A stretch of DNA of 64,000 bases. Origin: an uncultured Acidimicrobiaceae bacterium (GTDB lineage: Bacteria; Actinomycetota; Acidimicrobiia; Acidimicrobiales; Aldehydirespiratoraceae). Positions 2,964 to 12,083 of this stretch are shown in pieces. The stretch's first letter is position 1; each line of letters opens with the position of its first letter. Location of the stretch: assembly GCA_913041415.1 (NCBI GenBank), contig CAJWHS010000004.1:4417-68416 (forward strand), given 5' to 3'. A program made the translations under genes and the position numbers. The notes beneath the pieces were generated by a model. It was given only the letters and a program-made list of their open reading frames with translations, was not told where the DNA came from and did not search any database.

Positions 2964-3950
2964 TCAGAGGCGAGCGACGATCGCGTCGCCGATCTCGCTG
3001 GTGCTTCCGGTCAGAGTTTCGGGCTCGGTAGAGGCGGCACGGATGCGGTCGGCCGCCTCGGACTCGCCGAGGTGGTCCAACATCATCGCACCACTCAGGA
3101 TGGCGGCGATGGGGTTTGCCTTGCCGGTGCCGACGATGTCGGGCGCCGAGCCGTGGACCGGCTCGAACATCGACATGCCGTTCGGGTTCAGGTTTGCGGT
3201 GGGAGCCAGGCCGATACCGCCCGACACCGCACCCCCGAGGTCGGTGAGGATGTCGCCGAACAGGTTGTCGGTGACGATCACGTCGTACCGCTGAGGGTCC
3301 TGCACGAAGTAGATGCAGGCGGCGTCGACATGGTTGTACGCCGTCTCGACCTCGGGGTACTCGGTGGCCACCTCGTTGAAGGTGCGCTCCCAGAGATCAC
3401 CCGAGAAGGTGAGGACGTTGGTCTTGTGCACGAGCGTGACGTGCTTGCTGCGCTTCATCGCGAGGTCGAAGGCGTAGCGGACGCAGCGTTCGACACCCAT
3501 GCGGGTGTTGACCGAACCCTGGGTGGCGATCTCGTGTGGGGTGTTGGCCCGCAGCAGACCACCCTCTCCGGCGTAGGTGCCCTCCGTGTTCTCCCGGATC
3601 ACGACGAAGTCGTGGCTGACCCCTCCGTCGTCGGTGCGCGCACCGAGGAACGGCCGGTAGTTGATGTACAGATCGAGTTCGAAACGCATCTTGAGCAGCA
3701 GGCCTCGCTCGATGAGGCCGGGCGGCACATCGGGGGTGCCGACCGCGCCGGCGTAGAGGGCATCGATCCCGCGCCACTCATCGATGATCTTCTGGGGCAG
3801 AACGGTTCCGTCCTTCAGGTACCGCTCGCCGCCAAGGTCGTAGTCGATGCGCTCGTACTCGATGCCGAGGGCGTCGATGACCTTGAGGCCTTCGGCCACG
3901 ACCTCGGGGCCGATGCCGTCGCCACCCATGATGCCGATGCGGTGCGTCAC
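2964..3950 (-). CDS. leuB: 3-isopropylmalate dehydrogenase
   Basis: RIGIMGGDGIGPEV N-terminus, NLFGDILTDL and GSAPDI motifs. Start placed at GTG 3950 (GGAAGG 7 nt upstream) rather than the TTG at 3971 used by the ORF track. Confidence 0.9.
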   Translation of the reverse strand: MTHRIGIMGGDGIGPEVVAEGLKVIDALGIEYERIDYDLGGERYLKDGTVLPQKIIDEWRGIDALYAGAVGTPDVPPGLIERGLLLKMRFELDLYINYRPFLGARTDDGGVSHDFVVIRENTEGTYAGEGGLLRANTPHEIATQGSVNTRMGVERCVRYAFDLAMKRSKHVTLVHKTNVLTFSGDLWERTFNEVATEYPEVETAYNHVDAACIYFVQDPQRYDVIVTDNLFGDILTDLGGAVSGGIGLAPTANLNPNGMSMFEPVHGSAPDIVGTGKANPIAAILSGAMMLDHLGESEAADRIRAASTEPETLTGSTSEIGDAIVARL

Positions 3951-3969
3951 GTTGGAACCTTCCTGGAAC

Positions 3970-3997
3970 AAGAAAAACCGCCCACCGAAGTGGACGG
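3970..3997 (-). terminator. intrinsic terminator-like hairpin with U-tract, 20 nt upstream of leuB (attenuator terminator)
   Basis: Minus strand CCGUCCAC-UUCG-GUGGGCGG (8 bp including one G-U, UUCG tetraloop) followed directly by UUUUUCUU. No gene ends here on this strand, so it lies in a 5' leader. Confidence 0.7.
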
Positions 3998-4028
3998 CTG
4001 GTGGCGCACGCCGAAAGCCCGACGTGCG

Positions 4029-4064
4029 CTACGAAATGCTGATGATGATCGAGATGGTCATCAT
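4029..4064 (-). CDS. putative Ile-rich leader peptide MMTISIIISIS (11 codons)
   Basis: ATG ATG ACC ATC TCG ATC ATC ATC AGC ATT TCG TAG. Five of 11 codons are Ile, three of them consecutive. The stop codon overlaps the base of a 9-10 bp hairpin (4004-4029). A promoter-like TTGAGT-N17-TAGGCT ends 7 nt before the ATG. Confidence 0.55.
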   Translation of the reverse strand: MMTISIIISIS

Positions 4065-4071
4065 GGCCAGA

Positions 4072-4100
4072 AGCCTACCGGGCGCCCTTCTTGGACTCAA
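4072..4100 (-). promoter_or_regulatory. sigma-A-like promoter for the leader ORF (TTGAGT-N17-TAGGCT), predicted leaderless start at ATG 4064
   Basis: Read directly on the minus strand: -35 TTGAGT (4100-4095), 17-nt spacer, -10 TAGGCT (4077-4072), 7 nt, then ATG. Confidence 0.5.
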
Positions 4101-4167
4101 TCGCCCGTCGACGTGACTCATGGGCTGTGCGGCTGAGCGAACCGACGGGACCGATAGCCTCGTCCAG

Positions 4168-4638
4168 ATGGCAGACGCACAGCAGCTCTCCCAAGCCGCC
4201 TTCGACCGGCTCAAGGCCGAGTACGACGACCTCACCACGCGCGGGCGCATCGACATCGCCCGCAAGATCGAGGCCGCCCGTGAGCTCGGTGATCTCTCCG
4301 AGAACGGCGACTACCACGCCGCCAAGGAGGAGCAGGGCAAGATGGAAGGCCGCATCATGCACCTCGGTCGCATGATCGAGAATGCCGTGATCGTCGAGAC
4401 CGAGGTCGGGGGCGATTCCGTCAAGGCGGGGGCCATCGTCACAATCATCTTCGATGGCGAAGACGACGCGGAGCGATATCTCGTTGGCTCGATCGAGGAA
4501 CAGGTCAAGGACGTCACCGTCGTTTCGCCCGGCTCGCCGATGGGTGCCGCCCTGCTCGGTGCCGCCGTTGGCGATGAGGTCGAGTACGAGGCGCCGACCG
4601 GCGCCGTCTTGAAGGTCAAAGTCCTTGCGATCGCGTAG
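4168..4638 (+). CDS. greA: transcription elongation factor GreA
   Basis: MADAQQLSQAAFDRLKAEYDDLTTRGRIDIARKIEAARELGDLSENGDYHAAKEEQ... is the GreA coiled-coil plus C-terminal domain. Start at internal ATG 4168 with TAGCCT (4155-4160) 7 nt upstream. Confidence 0.9.
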   Translation: MADAQQLSQAAFDRLKAEYDDLTTRGRIDIARKIEAARELGDLSENGDYHAAKEEQGKMEGRIMHLGRMIENAVIVETEVGGDSVKAGAIVTIIFDGEDDAERYLVGSIEEQVKDVTVVSPGSPMGAALLGAAVGDEVEYEAPTGAVLKVKVLAIA

Positions 4639-5307: not shown

Positions 5308-6705
5308 ATGCGTCGCCTGCTAATTCTACTATCCGTCTTCGCGTTAGTTGCGTCCGCCTGCGGTGGAGGTGACGACAGCACCGAAACCACCGCCGGGGAC
5401 ACGCCGACCGAGTCCGATTCGGCAGCAGAGCCCGACGAAGAAACGGCCGAGCCGGAGCCCGAACCCGAAGAAGAGGCCGAGCCAGAGCCCGAGGAGCCCG
5501 CCAACGACAACCCCCTCAATGCGCTCCGGGTGCCACAAGATTTCGCCACCATTCAGGATGCTGTTGATGCCGCTGAACCCGGCGATCTCGTGCTGATTGA
5601 CGAAGGCGTCTACAACGAGTCGGTCGTCGTCGAGACCGACAACATCGTCATTCGCGGTGTCGACCGCCAGACTGTCGTGCTCGATGGCGAGCACTCCGAG
5701 GAGATGGCGAACGGCATCATCGTGTTCTCCAACGGTGTCGCCGTCGAGAACCTCACCGTGAAGAACTACTTCTCGAACGGCGTGTTCTTCACCGGCGACT
5801 ACGACTCGGACTTCATCCTCCGGGGCTACCGGGTGAGCTATGTCAACGCTCTCAACAACCGGGTCTACGGCATCTACGCCTTCAATGCCGAGTACGGCCT
5901 GTTCGACAACACCTACGCCGCCGGACACACCGACTCGGGCTACTACATCGGCCAGTGCCAGCCGTGCAACGCCGTGTTGTCGAACAACCTGTCGGAGTAC
6001 AACACGCTCGCCTACTCGGGCACGAACGCCGGCGGCGACCTCTTCATCGTGAACAACGAGTTCCGGATGAACCGCATCGGGGTCACTCCTAACACGCTCA
6101 ACTCCGAAGAGCTCGCCCCGCAGCGCGGCGCGACCTTCGCCGGCAACTGGATCCACAGCAACGGCAACCCCGAAACCCCCAAGGGAGGCAACACCTGGGA
6201 GCTCGCCTACGGCGTTGGCATGGTGCTACCAGGGGCCAACAACAACCTCGTCAGCCGCAACCTGATCGAGAACAACCTCAACGGCGGCGTTGCGGTCTCG
6301 TTCATGCCCGACGGCGACACGTTCTGGTTGGCCGAGAACAACACGATCACCGACAACGTGTTCCGTGGTAACGGCATTGACGCCGTCATGGTCGACCAGG
6401 GTGGAGGAGAGGGCCTCGGCAACTGCTTCAGCGGCAACACCCTCGACACCTCCCGCCCGGCCGACATCGACACGGTCCTGCCGTGCGACGGGCCCGAGGG
6501 CGACCTCAGCGACATGATCGGCATCGACTTCTTCTCCCCGCCCGGCGCGGACGAAAACGTGCCATACGCCGATGTTGCGTCGCCGGGCGCTGCCGATCAG
6601 CCGTCCATGCCCGACGCGTTGACCGCTCCGGCGTCACCTGCCGACGTCCTGCCCGAGTTCGACGATTTCGATCTGGATGCGATCGCAGTCCCGAGCGGTA
6701 CCTGA
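5308..6705 (+). CDS. right-handed parallel beta-helix repeat lipoprotein (NosD/pectin-lyase-fold-like)
   Basis: Lipobox LVASAC and an acidic EPEPEPEEEAEPEPEEP linker. Then PQDFATIQDAVDAAEPGDLVLIDEGVYNESVVV plus repeated short N/G-rich beta-helix turns. SD GAGGGGGA upstream. Confidence 0.7.
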   Translation: MRRLLILLSVFALVASACGGGDDSTETTAGDTPTESDSAAEPDEETAEPEPEPEEEAEPEPEEPANDNPLNALRVPQDFATIQDAVDAAEPGDLVLIDEGVYNESVVVETDNIVIRGVDRQTVVLDGEHSEEMANGIIVFSNGVAVENLTVKNYFSNGVFFTGDYDSDFILRGYRVSYVNALNNRVYGIYAFNAEYGLFDNTYAAGHTDSGYYIGQCQPCNAVLSNNLSEYNTLAYSGTNAGGDLFIVNNEFRMNRIGVTPNTLNSEELAPQRGATFAGNWIHSNGNPETPKGGNTWELAYGVGMVLPGANNNLVSRNLIENNLNGGVAVSFMPDGDTFWLAENNTITDNVFRGNGIDAVMVDQGGGEGLGNCFSGNTLDTSRPADIDTVLPCDGPEGDLSDMIGIDFFSPPGADENVPYADVASPGAADQPSMPDALTAPASPADVLPEFDDFDLDAIAVPSGT

Positions 6706-8044
6706 ACAACCAACTCGTCGAATCGGCGTCCTGCTCGGCGCCCTCGCCGTCCTCGTGGCGGCGTGTGGCGGCAGCACCGACGCCGATTCCGACGCGCTCG
6801 TCGTTCCGACAACTGCGCCGGACTGGTTGATCGAGCGAGCCGGCGACGCCACGACAACCTTCGAGGTGAGCGAGCGCTCCTACAACCTCTCGGCCCGCAA
6901 CGTCGGTCTTCCCGCACGAATTCGGTTTGCCGACGGCGACGAAGTCTTCGAAGCCTTCTTCGACACCGACACGGGGCTCGGCCCCGATTTCAACGCCAAC
7001 AGTTGCACGTCGTGCCATGTCAACAACGGCCGTCAACAGTTCCCGGTGGAGAGCGGCACCGTGGGTATCGGTCCCGTCATGCACGTGTCCGCTCCGGGCG
7101 CCACCGACGACGAGGCGCCGTTCGACCTACCCGGCTTCGGCACTGGCCTGCAAACCTTCACCGTCGACGGCAGCCAACCCGAAGCCCGGATCGACGTGAC
7201 GTGGGAGACGATCAAGGGGACCTACCCCGACGGCACGCCCTACGACCTCCGTCGACCCGTCGTCTCAGCCGTCGGTCTCGCCCGCGAACTTCCCGCCGAC
7301 GCACAACTCTCGCTCCGCATCCCGCCGCAGGTTGCGGGACCAGGCCTGCTTGAGTACGTGCCGGCGGCAGACATCGTGGCTGCGGCCGATCCCGATGATG
7401 CCGACGGCGACGGCATCTCCGGCGCCGTCAATTATGTCGTCGACGGCCGCATCGGCCGCCACGGCTGGAAGGCTGATACGCCCGATCTTGTCCACCAGTC
7501 GGCCAATGCCCTTGCCGAGGATATCGGTGTTGGTACCTCGCTCATCCCGGTCAACGGCTCGATTGAGTTGTCCGACGAAGAGCTCGCTGATCTCGCGTTC
7601 TACGTCGAGGCCCTTGCGATTCCTGCCGGACGTGACGTCGACGATCTCGACGTCATCCGTGGCGCCAATCTCTTCACTGCAATCGGCTGCGCCGACTGCC
7701 ACACGCCGACACAACGCACCGGCATCACCCAGTACGCCGAACTCAACAACCTTTTGCTCATCCCTTTCACCGACCTGCTGCTCCACGACATGGGACCAGG
7801 TCTCGACGACGGCCGGAGCGTCTACCGTGCGTCAGGTAGCGAGTGGAGAACTGCACCGCTGTGGGGCATCGGCCTGCTTGACACCGTCAACGGCCACGTG
7901 TCGCTGCTGCACGACGGCCGGGCCCGCTCGATCGAAGAGGCGATCCTGTGGCACGGCGGCGAGGCCCAGCACGTCACGGACGCCTTCATGGCGCTCAGCG
8001 CCGAGGATCGAGCTGCGCTGCTTCGATTCGTCGCGAGCCGCTAA
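6677..8044 (+). CDS. di-haem cytochrome c peroxidase-like lipoprotein (DUF1111 family)
   Basis: Lipobox LVAACGG, two CxxCH motifs (CTSCH, CADCH), RTAPLWGIGLL and HDGRARSIEEAILWHGGEA. The only start that retains the signal peptide is ATG 6677, which overlaps the preceding gene by 29 nt. Confidence 0.75.
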   Translation: MRSQSRAVPEQPTRRIGVLLGALAVLVAACGGSTDADSDALVVPTTAPDWLIERAGDATTTFEVSERSYNLSARNVGLPARIRFADGDEVFEAFFDTDTGLGPDFNANSCTSCHVNNGRQQFPVESGTVGIGPVMHVSAPGATDDEAPFDLPGFGTGLQTFTVDGSQPEARIDVTWETIKGTYPDGTPYDLRRPVVSAVGLARELPADAQLSLRIPPQVAGPGLLEYVPAADIVAAADPDDADGDGISGAVNYVVDGRIGRHGWKADTPDLVHQSANALAEDIGVGTSLIPVNGSIELSDEELADLAFYVEALAIPAGRDVDDLDVIRGANLFTAIGCADCHTPTQRTGITQYAELNNLLLIPFTDLLLHDMGPGLDDGRSVYRASGSEWRTAPLWGIGLLDTVNGHVSLLHDGRARSIEEAILWHGGEAQHVTDAFMALSAEDRAALLRFVASR

Positions 8045-8052
8045 GCGGTGCG

Positions 8053-9339
8053 TCAAACACAGCGATCGATTCGGAGCAGATCGCCGATGATCTTCCCGTC
8101 GGCGGCGGCCTCGGCGACCCACCCAGCGATCCCTTCATCGAGTTCGTCGAGATCGCGCGGGGTGTCCATAACGATGTCCCATCGCAGACACTCGCGACCG
8201 CCGGGATCGCGATAGACGGAGAGTGCGTCGCCGCCCCAGCCCGACGCCGTGTCGGGTGTGCCACCGACCGCGAACGTGATCGCTTCGATCAGCGCCTGGC
8301 CACCGCTCCCCTGCCACAGAACCTCGCCGTCGACATCGGGAAACGACACGTCGATGATCGCGGGATCGACGGTCCCCGGTAACTCGATCACCGCCTCGCT
8401 GCTGACAGCCGGATTCGCGACAGCATCGTCGACTGCGGAGATCCCCTCTTCGGCGATACGCCCGTTGAGCCAGGTGTTGCCGTAGTCGTAGACGGCGGTC
8501 TGGTACAGCAGAAAGCCGAAATCGAGCGAGAAGATGTCACCGACTTCGAAGACGGCTTCCTCCGCAGCGAGTTCGGCCTGATCAGCAGCGGAGAGTGAGT
8601 CGCGCCAGAGATCCTCGATCACGGTGGCGCTGCCCTCGACTGCGGCAGTGAACGCCCAGGCGGCGTCGCCGTCGGTACTGAGTTCGGGCCGGTCGAGACC
8701 GAAGTGCTGATCGTCGAAGGCATGGACGAGTTCATGGACGACCGTGGCCTTGGCCAACAGCGTGAGTTCGCCATTCGAGCGGACGAGCAGACGGTCAGAG
8801 GAGGGGAAGTACACGCCGAGCACGCCACCGGAAACGAACACCTCGTACACGTCGAGAAACCCGTCGTCTGGGCCGAAGAAGCCGACCGACCGGGCAAAAG
8901 CAAGACTCGCCGCTGACCCCTCGGGATCGGCGGCCAACTCGGACTCGAGATCGTCGAGCACGATGCGGGTCATCGTGTCGACGTCGACCAGTTCGACATC
9001 CGGGCGGTCAAGAAAGTTGCGCCGTCGGGTCTCCTCGATGAACGCAATCGCTTCGTCGACAAACGCGTCAAGATCGGTCTGCTCATCAGTGGAGGTCTCC
9101 GATGCTCCTGCCTCGACCGAATCGGCAGCTTCGTCGAGGCCCAGGGCCGTCGGGGTTGTGGTCGCGGGCAGTTCAGCGGCCTCGTCGTCATCGAGCAGGC
9201 TGACGACCGCCTGCACGGCGAACGCAAGCACGACCGCCGCGGCGGCGACGAGAACACCGCGCAGGAACCAGAGCGAGAAAGGGCTGACCTCCGCTTCAGC
9301 GGCGGCGGGTTCTGCGCCGGAGTTCGGCCGTTCACTCAC
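8053..9339 (-). CDS. membrane-anchored HExxH metallopeptidase-like protein, function unknown
   Basis: N-terminal TM helix (FSLWFLRGVLVAAAAVVLAFAV), acidic linker and HELVHAFDDQH motif. GTG start overlaps the iclR stop (GTGA). Confidence 0.6.
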   Translation of the reverse strand: MSERPNSGAEPAAAEAEVSPFSLWFLRGVLVAAAAVVLAFAVQAVVSLLDDDEAAELPATTTPTALGLDEAADSVEAGASETSTDEQTDLDAFVDEAIAFIEETRRRNFLDRPDVELVDVDTMTRIVLDDLESELAADPEGSAASLAFARSVGFFGPDDGFLDVYEVFVSGGVLGVYFPSSDRLLVRSNGELTLLAKATVVHELVHAFDDQHFGLDRPELSTDGDAAWAFTAAVEGSATVIEDLWRDSLSAADQAELAAEEAVFEVGDIFSLDFGFLLYQTAVYDYGNTWLNGRIAEEGISAVDDAVANPAVSSEAVIELPGTVDPAIIDVSFPDVDGEVLWQGSGGQALIEAITFAVGGTPDTASGWGGDALSVYRDPGGRECLRWDIVMDTPRDLDELDEGIAGWVAEAAADGKIIGDLLRIDRCV

Positions 9340-9986
9340 CGCAAACCTGCCTCCTGGGCAACCCGACGGGCCGCCTCGACGACCGCCGGACCAAACGCCG
9401 ACCCAGGGTCTCGAGTGAGCCGCTCGATGGGCCCGCTCACGGAGACCGCTGCGACTACCGTCCCGTGGCGGTCGTGCACCGGTGCACTCACCGAAGCAAC
9501 ACCCGCCTCACGTTCTTCGACTGTGGCGACCCACGTCCCATCGTCGGTGCCGAGCAGGACCCGGCCACCCGAGCCCTGATCGAGCGGCAGGATTGCGCCG
9601 GCGGCAACAATCGTGCGCAATCCGTGGGGCGACTGCAGGGAGGCGAGACAGACGCGAGCGTCACCTTGCCGCACGAAAAGCTGCGCGGATTCACCGGTGG
9701 TGTCACGGAGTGCCGAGAGGGCGGGGCGAGCCGCCTCAGCGAGCGGCCACCCAGCGGCAGCGGTCTCACCGAGCGTGATCAGACGGGGGCCGAGCGCGAA
9801 CCGGGCGTCGTGATTTCGGCGCAGCAGGCCGTGGACTTCGAGGGCCGAGGCGAGACGGTGGGCGGTCGCCCGACTCAGGCCGGTGCGCTCGACGAGTTCG
9901 TTGAGCGACGCACCGCCGTTCTCGACCGCACCGAGGACCAAGGCCGCTTTGTCGATGACGCCAACACCGCTTACACTGAATTCCAC
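9336..9986 (-). CDS. IclR-family transcriptional regulator, divergent from leuCD (LtbR-like position)
   Basis: HTH region LNELVERTGLSRATAHRLASALEVHGLL plus an IclR effector domain. Start uncertain. GTG 9986 is preferred because TACGTT lies 7 nt upstream; GTG 10007 is an alternative. Confidence 0.8.
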   Translation of the reverse strand: MEFSVSGVGVIDKAALVLGAVENGGASLNELVERTGLSRATAHRLASALEVHGLLRRNHDARFALGPRLITLGETAAAGWPLAEAARPALSALRDTTGESAQLFVRQGDARVCLASLQSPHGLRTIVAAGAILPLDQGSGGRVLLGTDDGTWVATVEEREAGVASVSAPVHDRHGTVVAAVSVSGPIERLTRDPGSAFGPAVVEAARRVAQEAGLR

Positions 9987-10001
9987 ATTGCAAAACGTAC
10001 T

Positions 10002-10016
10002 TCTCACAATGTGAGA
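10002..10016. promoter_or_regulatory. candidate operator: perfect inverted repeat TCTCAC-AAT-GTGAGA between iclR and leuC
   Basis: Read directly. It lies just upstream of the iclR -10 (9994-9999, minus strand) and about 20 nt before the leuC ATG. Confidence 0.45.
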
Positions 10017-10035
10017 TGCCAACTTGGTGATCACT

Positions 10036-11445
10036 ATGTCGCAACCCCGCACCCTGAGCCAGAAGATCTGGGACCACCACGTCGTCACACCCGGCGTGGG
10101 CGGCGCCCCCGACCTGCTCTACATCGACCTCCACCTCATCCATGAGGTCACCTCGCCGCAGGCCTTCGACGGTCTTCGCCAAAATGGTCGACCGGTCCGC
10201 CGCCCCGATCTCACCGTGGCCACCGAAGACCACAACACACCGACGGAGGATCAGGACAAGCCGATCGCCGATGAGATCAGTGCCTCACAGATCGAGACGC
10301 TCCGCGTCAACACGCAAGAATTCGGCATCGTCCACTACCCGATGGGCCACGAGAACAACGGGATCGTGCACGTCATGGGTCCCGAGCAGGGCCTCACGCA
10401 GCCGGGCATGACCATCGTGTGCGGCGACTCTCACACAGCCACCCACGGCGCCTTCGGATCAATCGCCTTCGGCATCGGTACCAGCGAGGTCGAGCACGTG
10501 CTCGCCACCCAGACGCTGCCCCAGGCCCGACCCGGCACGATGGCGATCACCGTCAACGGCGAACTGCAGGCAGGGGCCACCCCGAAGGACGTGATCCTCC
10601 ACGTCATCGGCGTGATCGGCACCGGCGGCGGCATCGGCAAGATCATCGAGTACCGCGGCGACGTATTCGAGAACATGTCGATGGAAGGCCGCATGACGGT
10701 CTGCAACATGTCGATCGAAGGTGGTGCCAAAGCCGGCCTCATCGCCCCGGACGAGACCACCTTCGAGTACGTGGCGGGCCGCCCCAACTCGCCCGTTGGC
10801 GCCGAACTCGAGGCCGCCATCCAGGACTGGAAAACGCTCACCACCGACGAAGGCGCCGTCTTCGACGAAGAGGTGATCATCGATGCGGCCGACATCGCGC
10901 CTCAAGTCAGCTGGGGAACCAACCCGGCCCAGGTCATGCCGATCGACGGCGTCATTCCCGGCCCCGACGACTTCGACGACCCGAACCTCGCCAACACCGC
11001 CGCTCGTGCCCTCGAGTACATGGATTTCGAGGCCGGCACCCCGATCAAGGACATCAAGGTCGATACCGTCTTCATCGGCAGCTGCACGAACAGCCGCATC
11101 GAGGATCTGCGAGCGGCGGCCGCCGTCGCCAAGGGCCGCAAGGTCGCCGACGGCATGCGCACCCTCGTCGTGCCGGGCTCCGGCCTAGTCAAGCAGCAGG
11201 CCGAGGCCGAGGGCCTGCCGGAGACCTTCCGCGAAGCCGGCTTTGACTGGCGGGAGCCGGGGTGCTCGATGTGCCTCGCCATGAATCCCGACAAGCTCCA
11301 GCCGGGCGAGCGTTGCGCCAGCACCAGCAACCGCAACTTCGAGGGACGTCAGGGCCGAGGAGGCCGCACCCACCTCGTCTCCCCCGCCATCGCCGCCGCC
11401 ACCGCCATCGCCGGGCACTTCGCGTCACCCGACGATTTGGCCTGA
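10036..11445 (+). CDS. leuC: 3-isopropylmalate dehydratase large subunit
   Basis: [17 protein letters not shown]..., GDSHT and [12 protein letters not shown] aconitase-family motifs. Confidence 0.95.
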
Positions 11446-11489
11446 GCACAAGAACACGACAACGAACGCACCATGCCCGGAGCACCAAA

Positions 11490-12083
11490 ATGAAGGCCGT
11501 CCGCATCGTCCAAGGCACCGCCGTGCCCCTCGACCGCACCGACGTCGACACCGATCAGATCATCCCGTCCGACTGGCTCAAGCGCGTCGAGCGCACCGGT
11601 TTCGAGAAGGGTCTCTTCTCGGAGTGGCGCGACGACCGAGACTTCGTGCTCAATCAAGAGCAGTACTCCGGCGCCAACATCCTCATCGGGGGCCTGAACT
11701 TTGGGACCGGTTCGAGCCGTGAACATGCCGTGTGGGCGATTCAGCAGTACGGCTTCGATGCCGTCATCTCACCGCGGTTCGCCGACATTTTCCGCAACAA
11801 CTGCACCAAGAACGGTCTCGTACCAGTGTCGGTTTCCGACGAGGTCAATGAACAGTTGATGCGAGCTGTGGAGGTCGACCCGACACTGGAGATCACGATC
11901 GACGTTGAGCGGCTCACCGTCGAGGCGCCGGCCATCGGGCTGGAGACGACATTCCCGCTGAGCGAGGCGATCCAAGAACGCTTCCTCGAAGGGCTCGATG
12001 ACATCGGACTCACCATGCGGTTAGCCACCGACATCGACGAGTACGAGACCACCCGCAAGCCCTGGATGCCCGCTCAGGCCTGA
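11490..12083 (+). CDS. leuD: 3-isopropylmalate dehydratase small subunit
   Basis: MKAVRIVQGTAVPLDRTDVDTDQIIPSDWLK...GLNFGTGSSREHAVWA. I trimmed the 273-aa ORF to the internal ATG. Confidence 0.95.
   Translation: MKAVRIVQGTAVPLDRTDVDTDQIIPSDWLKRVERTGFEKGLFSEWRDDRDFVLNQEQYSGANILIGGLNFGTGSSREHAVWAIQQYGFDAVISPRFADIFRNNCTKNGLVPVSVSDEVNEQLMRAVEVDPTLEITIDVERLTVEAPAIGLETTFPLSEAIQERFLEGLDDIGLTMRLATDIDEYETTRKPWMPAQA

Follow-up and report, generated by a model that had tools for sequence, protein, structure and literature searches.

A candidate isoleucine/valine-responsive leader-peptide attenuator upstream of leuB-ilvE-cimA in Acidimicrobiia

Elements made of a leader peptide plus a terminator have been described upstream of ilvB in actinobacteria (PMC1262725). 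In the attenuator of Mycobacterium tuberculosis ilvB1NC, the upstream open reading frame (uORF) lies within a 166-nt leader and carries the residues LVVI just before its stop codon, with the rare codon GUA (PMC13236596), and a three-hairpin attenuator, or ilvB-II motif, is present at ilvBNC of Corynebacterium glutamicum (PMC11857589; PMC10272879). The rare control codons GUA and CUU are also named for the ilvB attenuators of these two species (PMC13236596; PMC11857589). The polycysteine small ORFs (sORFs) of mycobacteria are translational and terminator-free, and their Cys codons pair with the next Shine-Dalgarno (SD) sequence (bioRxiv 10.1101/834739; PMC4633059). In the literature, no attenuator of leuB or cimA and no leader from the Acidimicrobiia was found; an Ile/Val leader-peptide attenuator before leuB-ilvE-cimA, or before cimA, is previously undescribed.

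The locus considered here belongs to an uncultured Acidimicrobiaceae bacterium and lies in a stretch of 64,000 nt, which is referred to as the window. A preliminary description, made from the sequence alone, had proposed an isoleucine attenuator between the divergent gene greA and leuB. When the minus strand was read, every feature named in it, that is the promoter, the leader ORF, the two hairpins and the SD sequence and GTG of leuB, was found where it had been placed. The features are as follows.

4100-4095, minus strand: -35-like box TTGAGT of the putative leader promoter (read in the sequence; TTGAC-type boxes occur family-wide)
4077-4072, minus strand: -10-like box TAGGCT, of the TANNNT type (read in the sequence; family promoter search)
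4064-4029, minus strand: leader ORF MMTISIIISIS plus TAG, 11 codons (stop codon at 4031-4029)
4037-4035, minus strand: candidate sensor codon Ile(-2), the rare ATT (family conservation; codon counts)
4029-4004, minus strand: HP1, GC-rich hairpin of 11 bp (RNAfold, RNAalifold, compensatory changes)
4003-4000, minus strand: short spacer from HP1 to T, rich in pyrimidines (spacing count over 156 copies)
3999-3976, minus strand: T, predicted intrinsic-terminator hairpin AGCCGUCCAC-UUCG-GUGGGCGGUU (RNAfold, terminator scan)
3977-3967, minus strand: U-rich tail UUUUUCUUGUU, its first two U's paired within T
3963-3958, minus strand: SD sequence GGAAGG, preceding the leuB GTG at 3950
3950 (GTG) to 2964, minus strand: leuB, first gene of the putatively regulated operon (NF002898, 468 bits)
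2903-1986, minus strand: ilvE, class I branched-chain aminotransferase, second gene (NF005146, 413 bits)
1989-355, minus strand: cimA, citramalate synthase, last gene of the operon (TIGR00977, 664 bits)
from 4168, plus strand: greA, divergent (flanking-gene annotation)

On the minus strand, 17 nt separate TTGAGT from TAGGCT and 7 nt separate TAGGCT from the ATG at 4064. The leader ORF reads ATG ATG ACC ATC TCG ATC ATC ATC AGC ATT TCG TAG, and its Ile codons are located at 4055-4053, at 4049-4041 (three ATC) and at 4037-4035 (ATT, position -2 with respect to the stop). HP1 is formed by the arm 4029-4019 paired with the arm 4014-4004 around the loop 4018-4015; it opens with the G of the TAG stop codon, as had been pointed out, and is 11 bp long rather than the 9-10 bp originally given. 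In T, the segment 3999-3990 pairs with 3985-3976, which corresponds to the core CCGUCCAC-UUCG-GUGGGCGG plus two outer pairs. Folding of the leader with RNAfold gives exactly HP1 and T (-46.8 kcal/mol, z = -3.6), and one of 200 shuffles folds as well. T is called by a terminator scan and, in a stricter scan, is among just four hairpin-plus-T-run sites in the 64 kb; its motif is unique there, with none expected. No other copy and no similar leader, for instance before leuC, was found in the window, where leuCD are paired instead with a divergent IclR-type regulator. A check of the flanking genes confirmed the original remark that no gene ends on the minus strand between greA and leuB. Within the operon the ATG of cimA overlaps the stop codon of ilvE (ATGA).

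The module recurs in relatives. A covariance model recovers a single copy in each of 57 leuB loci out of 80 from related Acidimicrobiia, the full-length matches (58, scoring 46-88 bits) being single in each locus and on the leuB strand every time. At least 120 further copies were found on metagenome contigs by means of an unbiased nucleotide pattern that left the peptide unspecified, and the first gene downstream on these contigs is leuB in 113 of 113 cases. More than 170 copies are in hand, of which 156 non-redundant ones form the pooled set for the counts of residues, codons and spacing; one carrier, Actinospongicola halichondriae Hal317 (NZ_CP171622.1), is cultured and has the element at 3908-3987 of locus L058. 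The uniqueness of the T motif and the recurrence of the module in both collections speak strongly against chance as the source of the element. Six genomes (loci L010, L013, L028, L033, L036 and L045) carry cimA apart from leuB-ilvE and have the element directly before cimA, and T is kept together with the ORF in all copies, including this variant. On such genomic evidence the candidate attenuator tracks citramalate synthase across genomes, in agreement with the early suggestion that an Ile leader would fit an operon ending in this enzyme. The leuB-(ilvE)-cimA operon is without the element in 15 related loci, which indicates that it is dispensable in some lineages. An Rfam scan of positions 3700-4400 at a permissive E-value returned matches at chance level only, those to amino-acid leaders and the T-box included (the best reached 9.6-19.4 bits, where the gathering scores are 35-153, and no E-value was below 0.3).

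The layout throughout the family consists of a promoter, a predicted leaderless ORF of 10-16 codons, HP1, a spacer of 2-5 nt, the GC-rich T and a U-rich tail. The small Ile-rich ORF had been put forward as a leader, and its behaviour in the family bears this out: the reading frame is kept, and the Ile/Val run is the sole conserved part of a peptide whose N-terminal part and length are variable. The ORFs end in [V/I][I/V][I/V]-Ile-x-stop, with Ile at -2 in 99% of the 156 non-redundant copies and in 119 of the 120 metagenome copies found by the pattern. Together, Ile and Val account for 83% of residues at positions -5 to -2 vs 9% at -8 to -6 (156 copies, kinship ignored); Leu is at 1.4%. The choice of codon is also biased. 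In the genome set ATT represents 40 of the 48 Ile codons at -2 (83%) vs 8.9% in leuB of the same loci, an excess with a binomial p of about 1e-34 when phylogenetic kinship is ignored; the pooled set has 111 ATT and 43 ATC at this position (ATT 71%), and GTA, another rare codon, is frequent at -5.

The promoter was evaluated by a family-wide search with a shuffle control; a scan of the E. coli type gave no sites, its consensus being too strict for TANNNT-type actinobacterial promoters. In the family, TTGAC-type boxes at 16-19 nt upstream of a -10-like hexamer are far more frequent than in the shuffle control, and a promoter score of at least 7 is reached by 48% of the elements vs 0.9% of the shuffles. 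In 54 elements, 5-10 nt lie between the end of the hexamer and the in-frame start downstream of it, and just 4 of 52 have an SD-like tetramer ahead of the leader ORF. A -10 hexamer in the place of an SD sequence is the criterion used for leaderless genes (PMC4633059), and the placement of the predicted promoter implies a leaderless or near-leaderless transcript, starting at or next to the ATG.

Both hairpins are supported by the comparison of relatives. HP1 begins within the stop codon, at its last base, in 155 of the 156 copies, shows compensatory changes in eight of nine pairs and is recovered independently by RNAalifold, which likewise supports T. Paired cells amount to 95.5% in the alignment vs 34-53% in slid controls, and the mean dG is -18 kcal/mol for HP1 and -17 kcal/mol for T. 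The stem of T, near-invariant in sequence at its base (CCGUCC/GGGCGG), comprises four invariant pairs, a U.G wobble retained in 41 of 47 and two outer pairs that covary strongly, and its loop ranges from 3 to 9 nt. A T-rich tail after T is conserved, with U-tracts that are frequently imperfect. HP1 and T have no nucleotides in common, and both are present in every MFE structure and ensemble. The gap between them is 2-5 unpaired nt in 146 of the 156 copies and the distance from the stop codon to T is confined to 25-32 nt; the distance from T to the following gene is free (22-181 nt). The Ile run, the overlap of stop codon and HP1, and T are conserved together, with covariation in both hairpins; as regards T and its U-rich tail, the agreement of RNAfold with the terminator scan and the covariation in the family sustain their initial assignment as a putative terminator.

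On this comparative basis, the element is very probably an Ile/Val-responsive leader-peptide attenuator. It would control read-through from the leaderless promoter into leuB-ilvE-cimA, that is, into the citramalate (pyruvate) route to isoleucine. The best explanation overall, to which we give moderate confidence, would be a ribosome-mediated transcription attenuator that senses charged tRNA-Ile, together with tRNA-Val, through a switch between two states like the one proposed for M. tuberculosis ilvB1. A ribosome awaiting Ile-tRNA or Val-tRNA at the codons up to -2 would have its mRNA entry site short of the base of HP1, so that HP1 would stay folded and RNA polymerase would read through T. 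With a good supply the ribosome would advance two codons to the stop and unzip HP1, T would work, and the transcript would end at about 3967-3970. Position -2 would be the last codon where a waiting ribosome tolerates a folded HP1, which would explain both the invariance of this position and the slow decoding there. Moreover, Ile and Val are enriched at -5 to -3, where classical logic predicts their avoidance, and this favours the two-state model. Whether its logic, in which folded HP1 means read-through, is correct in direction and mechanism appears finely balanced, with a slight lean towards doubt.

The consequence of the zero overlap between HP1 and T is that folded HP1 would have to act on T by proximity and not by base-pair competition. 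That HP1 may be a ribosome-gated antiterminator of this sort, suppressing T by proximity alone, is a tentative proposal that we consider rather unlikely; searches of the literature on hairpins next to terminators returned nothing relevant and no precedent for a non-overlapping antiterminator hairpin. Such an action could be exerted in three ways: HP1 might sterically keep the lower T stem from closing in the RNA exit channel, given the gap of 2-5 nt, it might hold the stalled ribosome no more than a helix-width from the base of the terminator, as a tether, or it might remain docked on the polymerase, like put RNA. Two codons further on, HP1 would be unzipped, the tether would be more than 10 nt longer and T would fire.

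The effect of the ribosome was modelled by a partition-function test on the 156 elements, with the ribosome placed from -5 to the stop and two footprints (12 nt and 15 nt downstream). With the 12-nt footprint, HP1 keeps 10.1 of its 10.3 pairs when the A site is at -5, so that stalls at -5 to -3 keep 8.5-10.1 pairs, and 8.5, 4.6, 0.7 and 0 pairs are left at -3, -2, -1 and the stop, respectively. With the 15-nt footprint the melting profile comes one codon earlier and HP1 is largely melted in the -2 state, the boundary of melting being uncertain by 3-5 nt, so that HP1 at -2 could be intact or half-melted. Masking of the ribosome-covered nucleotides revealed no thermodynamic antiterminator, as T forms at all ribosome positions with a mean pair probability of 0.86-0.98; RNA secondary structure alone thus predicts constitutive termination. 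A kinetic antiterminator, in which the 3' arm of HP1 pairs with the 5' arm of T before the 3' arm of T exists, was no better than shuffles (this 2:3 pairing has -5.7 kcal/mol vs -6.0 with shuffled upstream sequence, and T has -17), and a structure-agnostic, all-against-all analysis of column covariation detected the two known helices only and no alternative helix. The preliminary description had reported no convincing antiterminator by eye, and partition function, kinetic test and covariation likewise disclose none. The alternative pairing that it did mention, CGCCACC with GGUGG, can be formed in the window but lacks conservation and does not compete. Like a related one, in which the 3' end of HP1 and the spacer pair with GGGCG of T, it occurs in some members in an inconsistent register. 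Both were rejected as antiterminators because they would still leave a hairpin adjoining the U-tract.

These results bear directly on the classical three-pairing attenuator, with HP1 as the 1:2 anti-antiterminator and T as 3:4, an explanation that is unlikely yet keeps a modest share of probability. According to it, a ribosome stalled at Ile(-2) would cover the 5' arm of HP1, and the GGYG... 3' arm together with CGUC... of T would form a transient 2:3 pairing; if no stall took place, the ribosome would reach the stop and depart, and 1:2 and 3:4 would form. A recurrent GGCG:CGUC pairing of 4-6 bp can be drawn (-6.7 kcal/mol in the window), the pairing probability of T dips only with the 5' arm of HP1 masked while its 3' arm is free (mean 0.86, below 0.5 in 16 of 156), and a 15-nt downstream footprint puts precisely this masked state at A site -2. 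However, the 2:3 pairing is no stronger than that of the shuffles and is without covariation support, and the HP1 3' arm, whose start is 14 nt or more beyond the stop, is out of reach of a ribosome at the stop codon. Furthermore, the 5' arm follows the stop, so a ribosome stalled at -5 to -3 would not disturb HP1 and termination would result; Ile/Val codons at those positions, although strongly enriched, would then be counter-productive. The preliminary description spoke of the 'classical ribosome-mediated attenuation layout', and this is not supported, since region 1 lies after the stop, HP1 and T overlap by zero nucleotides and an antiterminator was not found; that interpretation is partly supported overall, with a core for which the comparative evidence is strong.

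There is a small chance that T is a constitutive leaky terminator and that the uORF and HP1 serve some other purpose, for instance a pause hairpin synchronising the first ribosome with RNA polymerase, or a stalled ribosome or 5' hairpin by which the stability of the read-through mRNA would be altered, with Ile acting post-transcriptionally or having no effect. The prediction of T in every ribosome state would suit this explanation, imperfect U-tracts such as CUUUCUCG suggest partial termination, and leaderless Cys uORFs of mycobacteria work without a terminator (bioRxiv 10.1101/834739). It leaves unexplained, however, the fixed HP1-T spacing and stop-to-T distance, as well as the joint retention of T and the ORF in every copy, those before detached cimA among them. 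The U-rich tail can pair with the SD sequence in the window only (-6.4 kcal/mol), and the free distance between T and the gene argues against control via the translation of leuB.

It is very improbable that the inverted repeats are protein-binding sites, either a DNA operator or the target of an RNA-binding regulator, or that the locus gives rise to a functional sRNA or micro-protein, in either case without sensing an amino acid. The near-invariance of the T stem base goes beyond the needs of a plain terminator, and attenuator RNAs and peptides with functions in trans are known, as in peTrpL/rnTrpL (PMC7298713), but the peptide is conserved in the Ile/Val run only, with rare codons, and the linkage to cimA operons is strict. 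In addition, the variable loop of T, from 3 to 9 nt, and the retention of G.U pairs and compensatory changes point to an RNA rather than a DNA operator, and an operator for a dimeric regulator was rejected on these grounds. Hungry-codon frameshifting or UAG read-through, by which the ribosome would translate across HP1 and T and physically prevent the terminator, is scarcely credible: the 5 nt between the A-site codon AUU(-2) and the hairpin resemble the arrangement of frameshift stimulators, and neither alternative frame meets a stop before the end of T in the window, where a TGA that overlaps the GTG of leuB closes the +1 frame and the leader ORF shares its frame with leuB. Of 40 loci, however, 38 leave the +1 frame open across T, 36 the -1 frame and 37 the 0 frame; each is broken in some members and no frame is specifically kept open, the frame of leuB relative to the leader is random, and a slippery motif is absent.

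The element adds a well-defined candidate class of regulatory RNA to the Acidimicrobiia, abundant and little-cultured actinobacteria of marine, freshwater and soil habitats whose gene regulation is almost undescribed. It would also provide independent genomic evidence that its carriers make isoleucine via citramalate synthase and regulate this route by the charging of Ile-tRNA. With a candidate sensor codon that is single, rare and invariant, a hairpin fused to the stop codon and, after another 2-5 nt, a terminator that shares no nucleotides with this hairpin, it may offer a natural test case for ribosome control of an intrinsic terminator without an overlapping antiterminator, a question that work on the ilvB leaders of actinobacteria also left open in 2005 (PMC1262725). 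For mutations of HP1, the two leading models predict opposite outcomes. If true, the action of HP1 by proximity would represent a mechanical coupling of translation to intrinsic termination rather than base-pair competition.

Like the enterobacterial attenuators of trp, his, leu, thr, ilvGMEDA and ilvBN, the element combines a leader rich in end-product codons with a predicted intrinsic terminator, a GC-rich hairpin and U-tract before the first gene, and its candidate sensor codons are rare, as are those of the E. coli leu leader. Unlike those systems, it has no mutually exclusive 2:3 antiterminator, its region 1 comes after the stop with the regulatory codons neither in nor next to it, its mRNA is predicted to be leaderless, and a single invariant sensor position stands at a fixed distance from the hairpin. 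The put RNA of phage HK022 is a processive antiterminator that acts in cis on RNA polymerase through two specific stem-loops, with no overlap with the terminator. If HP1 acts by proximity, the two would be alike in having a stable stem-loop just upstream of a terminator with no shared nucleotides; unlike put, HP1 would be gated by the ribosome, and its binding to the polymerase is hypothetical. The mycobacterial polycysteine sORFs, also from Actinomycetota, are short leaderless ORFs that form the first cistron of a biosynthetic operon and have their sensor codons at the C-terminal end (bioRxiv 10.1101/834739; PMC4633059), a layout that is predicted for the element too. Here, however, the sensor codons do not pair with a downstream SD sequence, a terminator with its U-tail has been retained in the family, and the next gene may begin anywhere from 22 to 181 nt after T.

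With the ilvBNC attenuator of C. glutamicum the element shares a leader peptide, rare control codons (CUU and GUA in that species) and very stable hairpins. The overlap of terminator and antiterminator in C. glutamicum is minimal, a boundary GCC trinucleotide for which the antiterminator still competes, and an anti-antiterminator is present, whereas in the element no nucleotides overlap and support extends to two helices only; the Rfam scan of 3700-4400 disclosed no relationship at the family or sequence level. As for M. tuberculosis ilvB1NC, the hairpin after its stop codon serves as an antiterminator, which has nucleotides in common with the terminator and is mutually exclusive with it, while HP1 and T share none. 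Moreover, the target is leuB-ilvE-cimA or cimA and not ilvB(N)C, the transcript is predicted to be leaderless, Leu codons are absent (1.4%) and the lineage, Acidimicrobiia, is outside those of both PMC13236596 and PMC1262725. The two systems, both from Actinomycetota, are nevertheless alike in a short uORF rich in branched-chain amino acids with rare control codons just before its stop, in a hairpin directly 3' of the stop that is predicted to be occluded by the terminating and not by the stalled ribosome (12-nt footprint), and in a Rho-independent terminator with U-tract before the first biosynthetic gene.

On the minus strand of the window, the region ahead of leuB-ilvE-cimA holds a short leader ORF, a hairpin that starts in the leader stop codon (HP1), a putative intrinsic-terminator hairpin (T) and a U-rich tail. 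Judged from its conservation, this element is very probably a real, conserved leader-peptide attenuator sensing Ile and Val.

Features of the element and its surroundings in the window
ATG 4168, plus strand: greA, divergent from leuB
4100-4095, minus strand: -35-like box TTGAGT, 17 nt from the -10-like box
4077-4072, minus strand: -10-like box TAGGCT, 7 nt before the leader ATG
4064-4029, minus strand: leader ORF ATG ATG ACC ATC TCG ATC ATC ATC AGC ATT TCG TAG (MMTISIIISIS)
4029-4019 paired with 4014-4004, minus strand: HP1, 11 bp, its first base being the G of TAG
Between HP1 and T, minus strand: spacer of 4 unpaired bases
3999-3990 paired with 3985-3976, minus strand: hairpin T, core CCGUCCAC-UUCG-GUGGGCGG
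After T, minus strand: tail UUUUUCUUGUU
3963-3958, minus strand: leuB SD, GGAAGG
GTG 3950, minus strand: leuB

The features seen in the preliminary description proved right in every detail: HP1 and T are the exact RNAfold output for the window (-46.8 kcal/mol, z = -3.6), T is picked up by the terminator scan, and leuB, class-I ilvE and cimA are borne out as the operon genes, the last with a TIGR00977 match of 664 bits (cutoff 450). Sites with a hairpin plus a T-run are rare, a stricter scan giving 4 in 64 kb at a window GC of 65.7%. The cimA gene spans 355-1989, and not from the GTG at 2085 given by the ORF finder, because the ilvE stop and the cimA start overlap as ATGA (1989-1986, minus strand), which suggests ilvE-cimA translational coupling. 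The U-rich tail can pair with the leuB SD region (3958-3977; UUUCUUG:CAGGAAG, about -6.4 kcal/mol) and might thereby hide the SD of read-through transcripts in the window; this pairing requires a gap of 22-36 nt between T and leuB and is not a conserved feature (gap range 22-181 nt). Two plus-strand genes downstream of greA are unrelated to the element: that at 5308-6705 encodes a NosD-like protein of parallel beta-helix type, and that at 6677-8044 a 455-aa protein that weakly matches cytochrome-c-like sequences.

The window is assigned to a marine Acidimicrobiia genome on the strength of 98% LeuB identity to a MAG and of TARA contigs. Upstream of leuB, many of 80 related loci have a short ORF ending in an Ile/Val run, one residue and the stop, followed by a GC hairpin from the stop codon, a near-invariant second hairpin and a T-rich tail. 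In an alignment of 47 such sequences, 95.5% of cells in both helices pair, versus 34-53% in controls with the partners shifted by 1-3 columns, and RNAalifold independently gives the identical two helices. Compensatory changes are found in 8 of the 9 HP1 pairs; in T, four pairs are invariant, a U.G wobble is present in 41/47 and the outer pairs covary strongly. With the covariance model made from this alignment, 58 full-length copies scored 46-88 bits: one in the window and one in each of 57 of the 80 loci. Furthermore, a metagenome pattern comprising only TAG, the HP1 base and T, with peptide and neighbouring genes left free, matched at least 120 contigs. Among the 120 contigs listed, the unconstrained codon -2 (counted back from the stop) is Ile in 119, preceded by V/I/A-rich residues; leuB is the next gene in all 113 with enough downstream sequence, ilvE and cimA come after it on contigs that extend far enough, and greA lies divergently upstream.

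The MAGs behind L018, L027, L023 and L036, with titles among them such as 'Bifidobacterium breve', 'uncultured Pirellulaceae' and 'Ferrithrix thermotolerans DSM 19514 isolate MH-09jul19-56', encode LeuB 70-73% identical to that of the window; L018, L027 and L036 show Acidimicrobiia-type greA/leuB-ilvE-cimA synteny and L023 leuB only. The four bins look taxonomically mislabelled.

The leader peptides are mostly 10-13 residues long with an unconserved N-terminal part. Over 156 pooled non-redundant copies, Ile and Val make up 83% of residues at -5 to -2 versus 9% at -8 to -6, with Leu at 1.4%.

Last leader codons: residues in 156 copies, and HP1 pairs left with the A site at that codon (computed, out of an expected 10.3; 12-nt footprint)
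-5: V 59%, I 20%; 10.1 pairs
-4: I 55%, V 28%; 10.1 pairs
-3: I 54%, V 19%; 8.5 pairs
-2: I 99%; 4.6 pairs
-1: variable (R, P, S, Q); 0.7 pairs
Stop: 0 pairs

At -2, 40 of the 48 Ile codons in the genome set are the rare ATT, compared with 13/65 at -3 to -5 and 8.9% of Ile codons in leuB of the same loci, all figures ignoring phylogenetic kinship. Conservation confined to the sensor-codon run, together with the slow-codon preference, is the mark of a regulatory leader rather than of a functional peptide. Among Val codons, the rare GTA is common at -5 (9/40), with further instances at -4 and -3 (e.g., L004, L014, L020, L022, L037); GUA is a named control codon in the attenuators of Mycobacterium tuberculosis ilvB1 (PMC13236596) and Corynebacterium glutamicum ilvBNC (PMC11857589).

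Across the family, 5-10 nt separate the end of the -10-like hexamer from the inferred in-frame ATG/GTG, and TTGAC-type -35 boxes stand 16-19 nt farther upstream; a combined promoter score of at least 7 is reached by 48% of elements versus 0.9% of shuffled controls, and an SD-like tetramer precedes the leader start in only 4/52. In mycobacterial leaderless genes, the hallmark is a -10 hexamer, not an SD, directly before RTG (PMC4633059). We infer that the leader transcript is leaderless.

The element is best described as a putative attenuator of the citramalate-synthase unit, because it accompanies cimA. Of the 51 copies upstream of leuB, every one on a sufficiently long contig precedes an operon that ends in cimA, and loci with leuB but no nearby cimA showed no element. 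Moreover, six genomes have cimA at a separate place from leuB-ilvE: there, leuB lacks the element, and a variant copy lies directly before cimA (L010:7628-7700, L013:7664-7737, L028:8180-8254, L033:8286-8358, L036:6128-6203, L045:8530-8601), with peptides ending ...IIIIP or ...IIIIR, T in the form GCCGCCC-loop-GGGCGGC, and a TIGR00977 gene (673 bits) behind it. This role fits the codon content, Ile plus Val and not Leu. No element was found in 15 loci with a leuB-(ilvE)-cimA operon (L008, L012, L015, L017, L019, L024, L027, L031, L034, L035, L038, L039, L053, L056, L061); some lineages have lost it or never acquired it. The greA-leuB spacer is about 40-60 nt in several element-free loci (e.g., L008, L012, L035). 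In the window, leuC (10024-11445, plus strand; NF004016, 770 bits), with leuD presumably behind it (region 9336-12083), has no leader peptide; a divergent IclR-type regulator (minus strand, 9336 to about 9968) is separated from it by a short spacer with the inverted repeat CACATTG...CAATGTG (about 9985-10013), a layout resembling the LtbR/NdgR arrangement of other actinobacteria.

As regards the switch, HP1 starts inside the stop codon in 155/156 copies, the HP1-T gap is 2-5 unpaired nt in 146/156, and the helices never share nucleotides; stop-to-T distances stay within 25-32 nt, those from T to the gene being free (22-181 nt). Work on the ribosomal helicase indicates that base pairs can stand to about +11 from the P site. 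If so, HP1 is fully intact at -2, which would thus be the last codon where a waiting ribosome allows folded HP1, and the stop codon would be placed for HP1 unzipping by the terminating ribosome. A ribosome stalled at the regulatory codons would then leave HP1 folded and permit read-through, and one at the stop codon would mask HP1 and cause termination at T. The data tentatively favour this two-state direction, at somewhat below even chance, because HP1 geometry and the Ile/Val enrichment at -5 to -3 speak against the classical 1:2/2:3/3:4 scheme. In that scheme, stalls at -5 to -3 keep 1:2 and terminate, which would make Ile/Val codons at these positions a disadvantage, whereas they are enriched several-fold; the classical layout claimed in the preliminary description fails on the overlapping antiterminator and on regulatory codons within region 1. 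A transient antiterminator, formed by the freed HP1 3' arm and the T 5' arm while the 3' arm of T is still to come, averages -5.7 kcal/mol versus -6.0 in shuffled sequences, far weaker than T (-17 kcal/mol). With the ribosome modelled at every codon from -5 to the stop (downstream footprints of 12 or 15 nt), no ribosome-gated loss of T was found, its mean pair probability staying at 0.86-0.98, and an all-against-all covariation scan of the alignment gave no third helix. A DNA operator is contradicted by the variable T loop length and G.U-preserving variation. Frameshifting or read-through is unsupported, since none of the three frames stands out: each is open through T in a similar number of loci (36-38/40) and interrupted in some members.

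Under the two-state reading, folded HP1 would act on T by proximity, whether by hindering it sterically within the exit channel, by keeping the stalled ribosome on a very short tether or by lasting contact with the polymerase. That this coupling is a new, non-base-pairing mechanism is conceivable but rather unlikely; no precedent for a hairpin acting on a non-overlapping neighbour terminator was found in the searched literature. The elemental pause consensus has G at -10, a pyrimidine at -1 and G at +1. The T 5' arm opens with an invariant CCG, and a conserved GCGC stands at the HP1 3' end, about 9-10 nt upstream (window 3996-4005; alignment columns 44-56); together they resemble this consensus, and HP1 might also be a pause hairpin holding the polymerase until the ribosome arrives.

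No Rfam family matches the element, and the searched literature does not mention a leuB or cimA attenuator or an Acidimicrobiia leader; the 2005 survey of actinobacterial attenuators covers only ilvB, leuA, trp, cys and ileS elements (PMC1262725). The element would be a variant of leader-peptide attenuators without counterpart in either source. It would work like the known ones, but lacks two defining features of the classical family, an overlapping antiterminator and regulatory codons within region 1, and differs from the actinobacterial ilvB two-hairpin type in having no mutual exclusion, one defining feature of that type. Two-state logic with a post-stop hairpin was proposed for M. tuberculosis ilvB1, whose hairpin overlaps the terminator (PMC13236596), whereas HP1 does not overlap T; in C. 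glutamicum the overlap is minimal (PMC11857589), and here it is zero.
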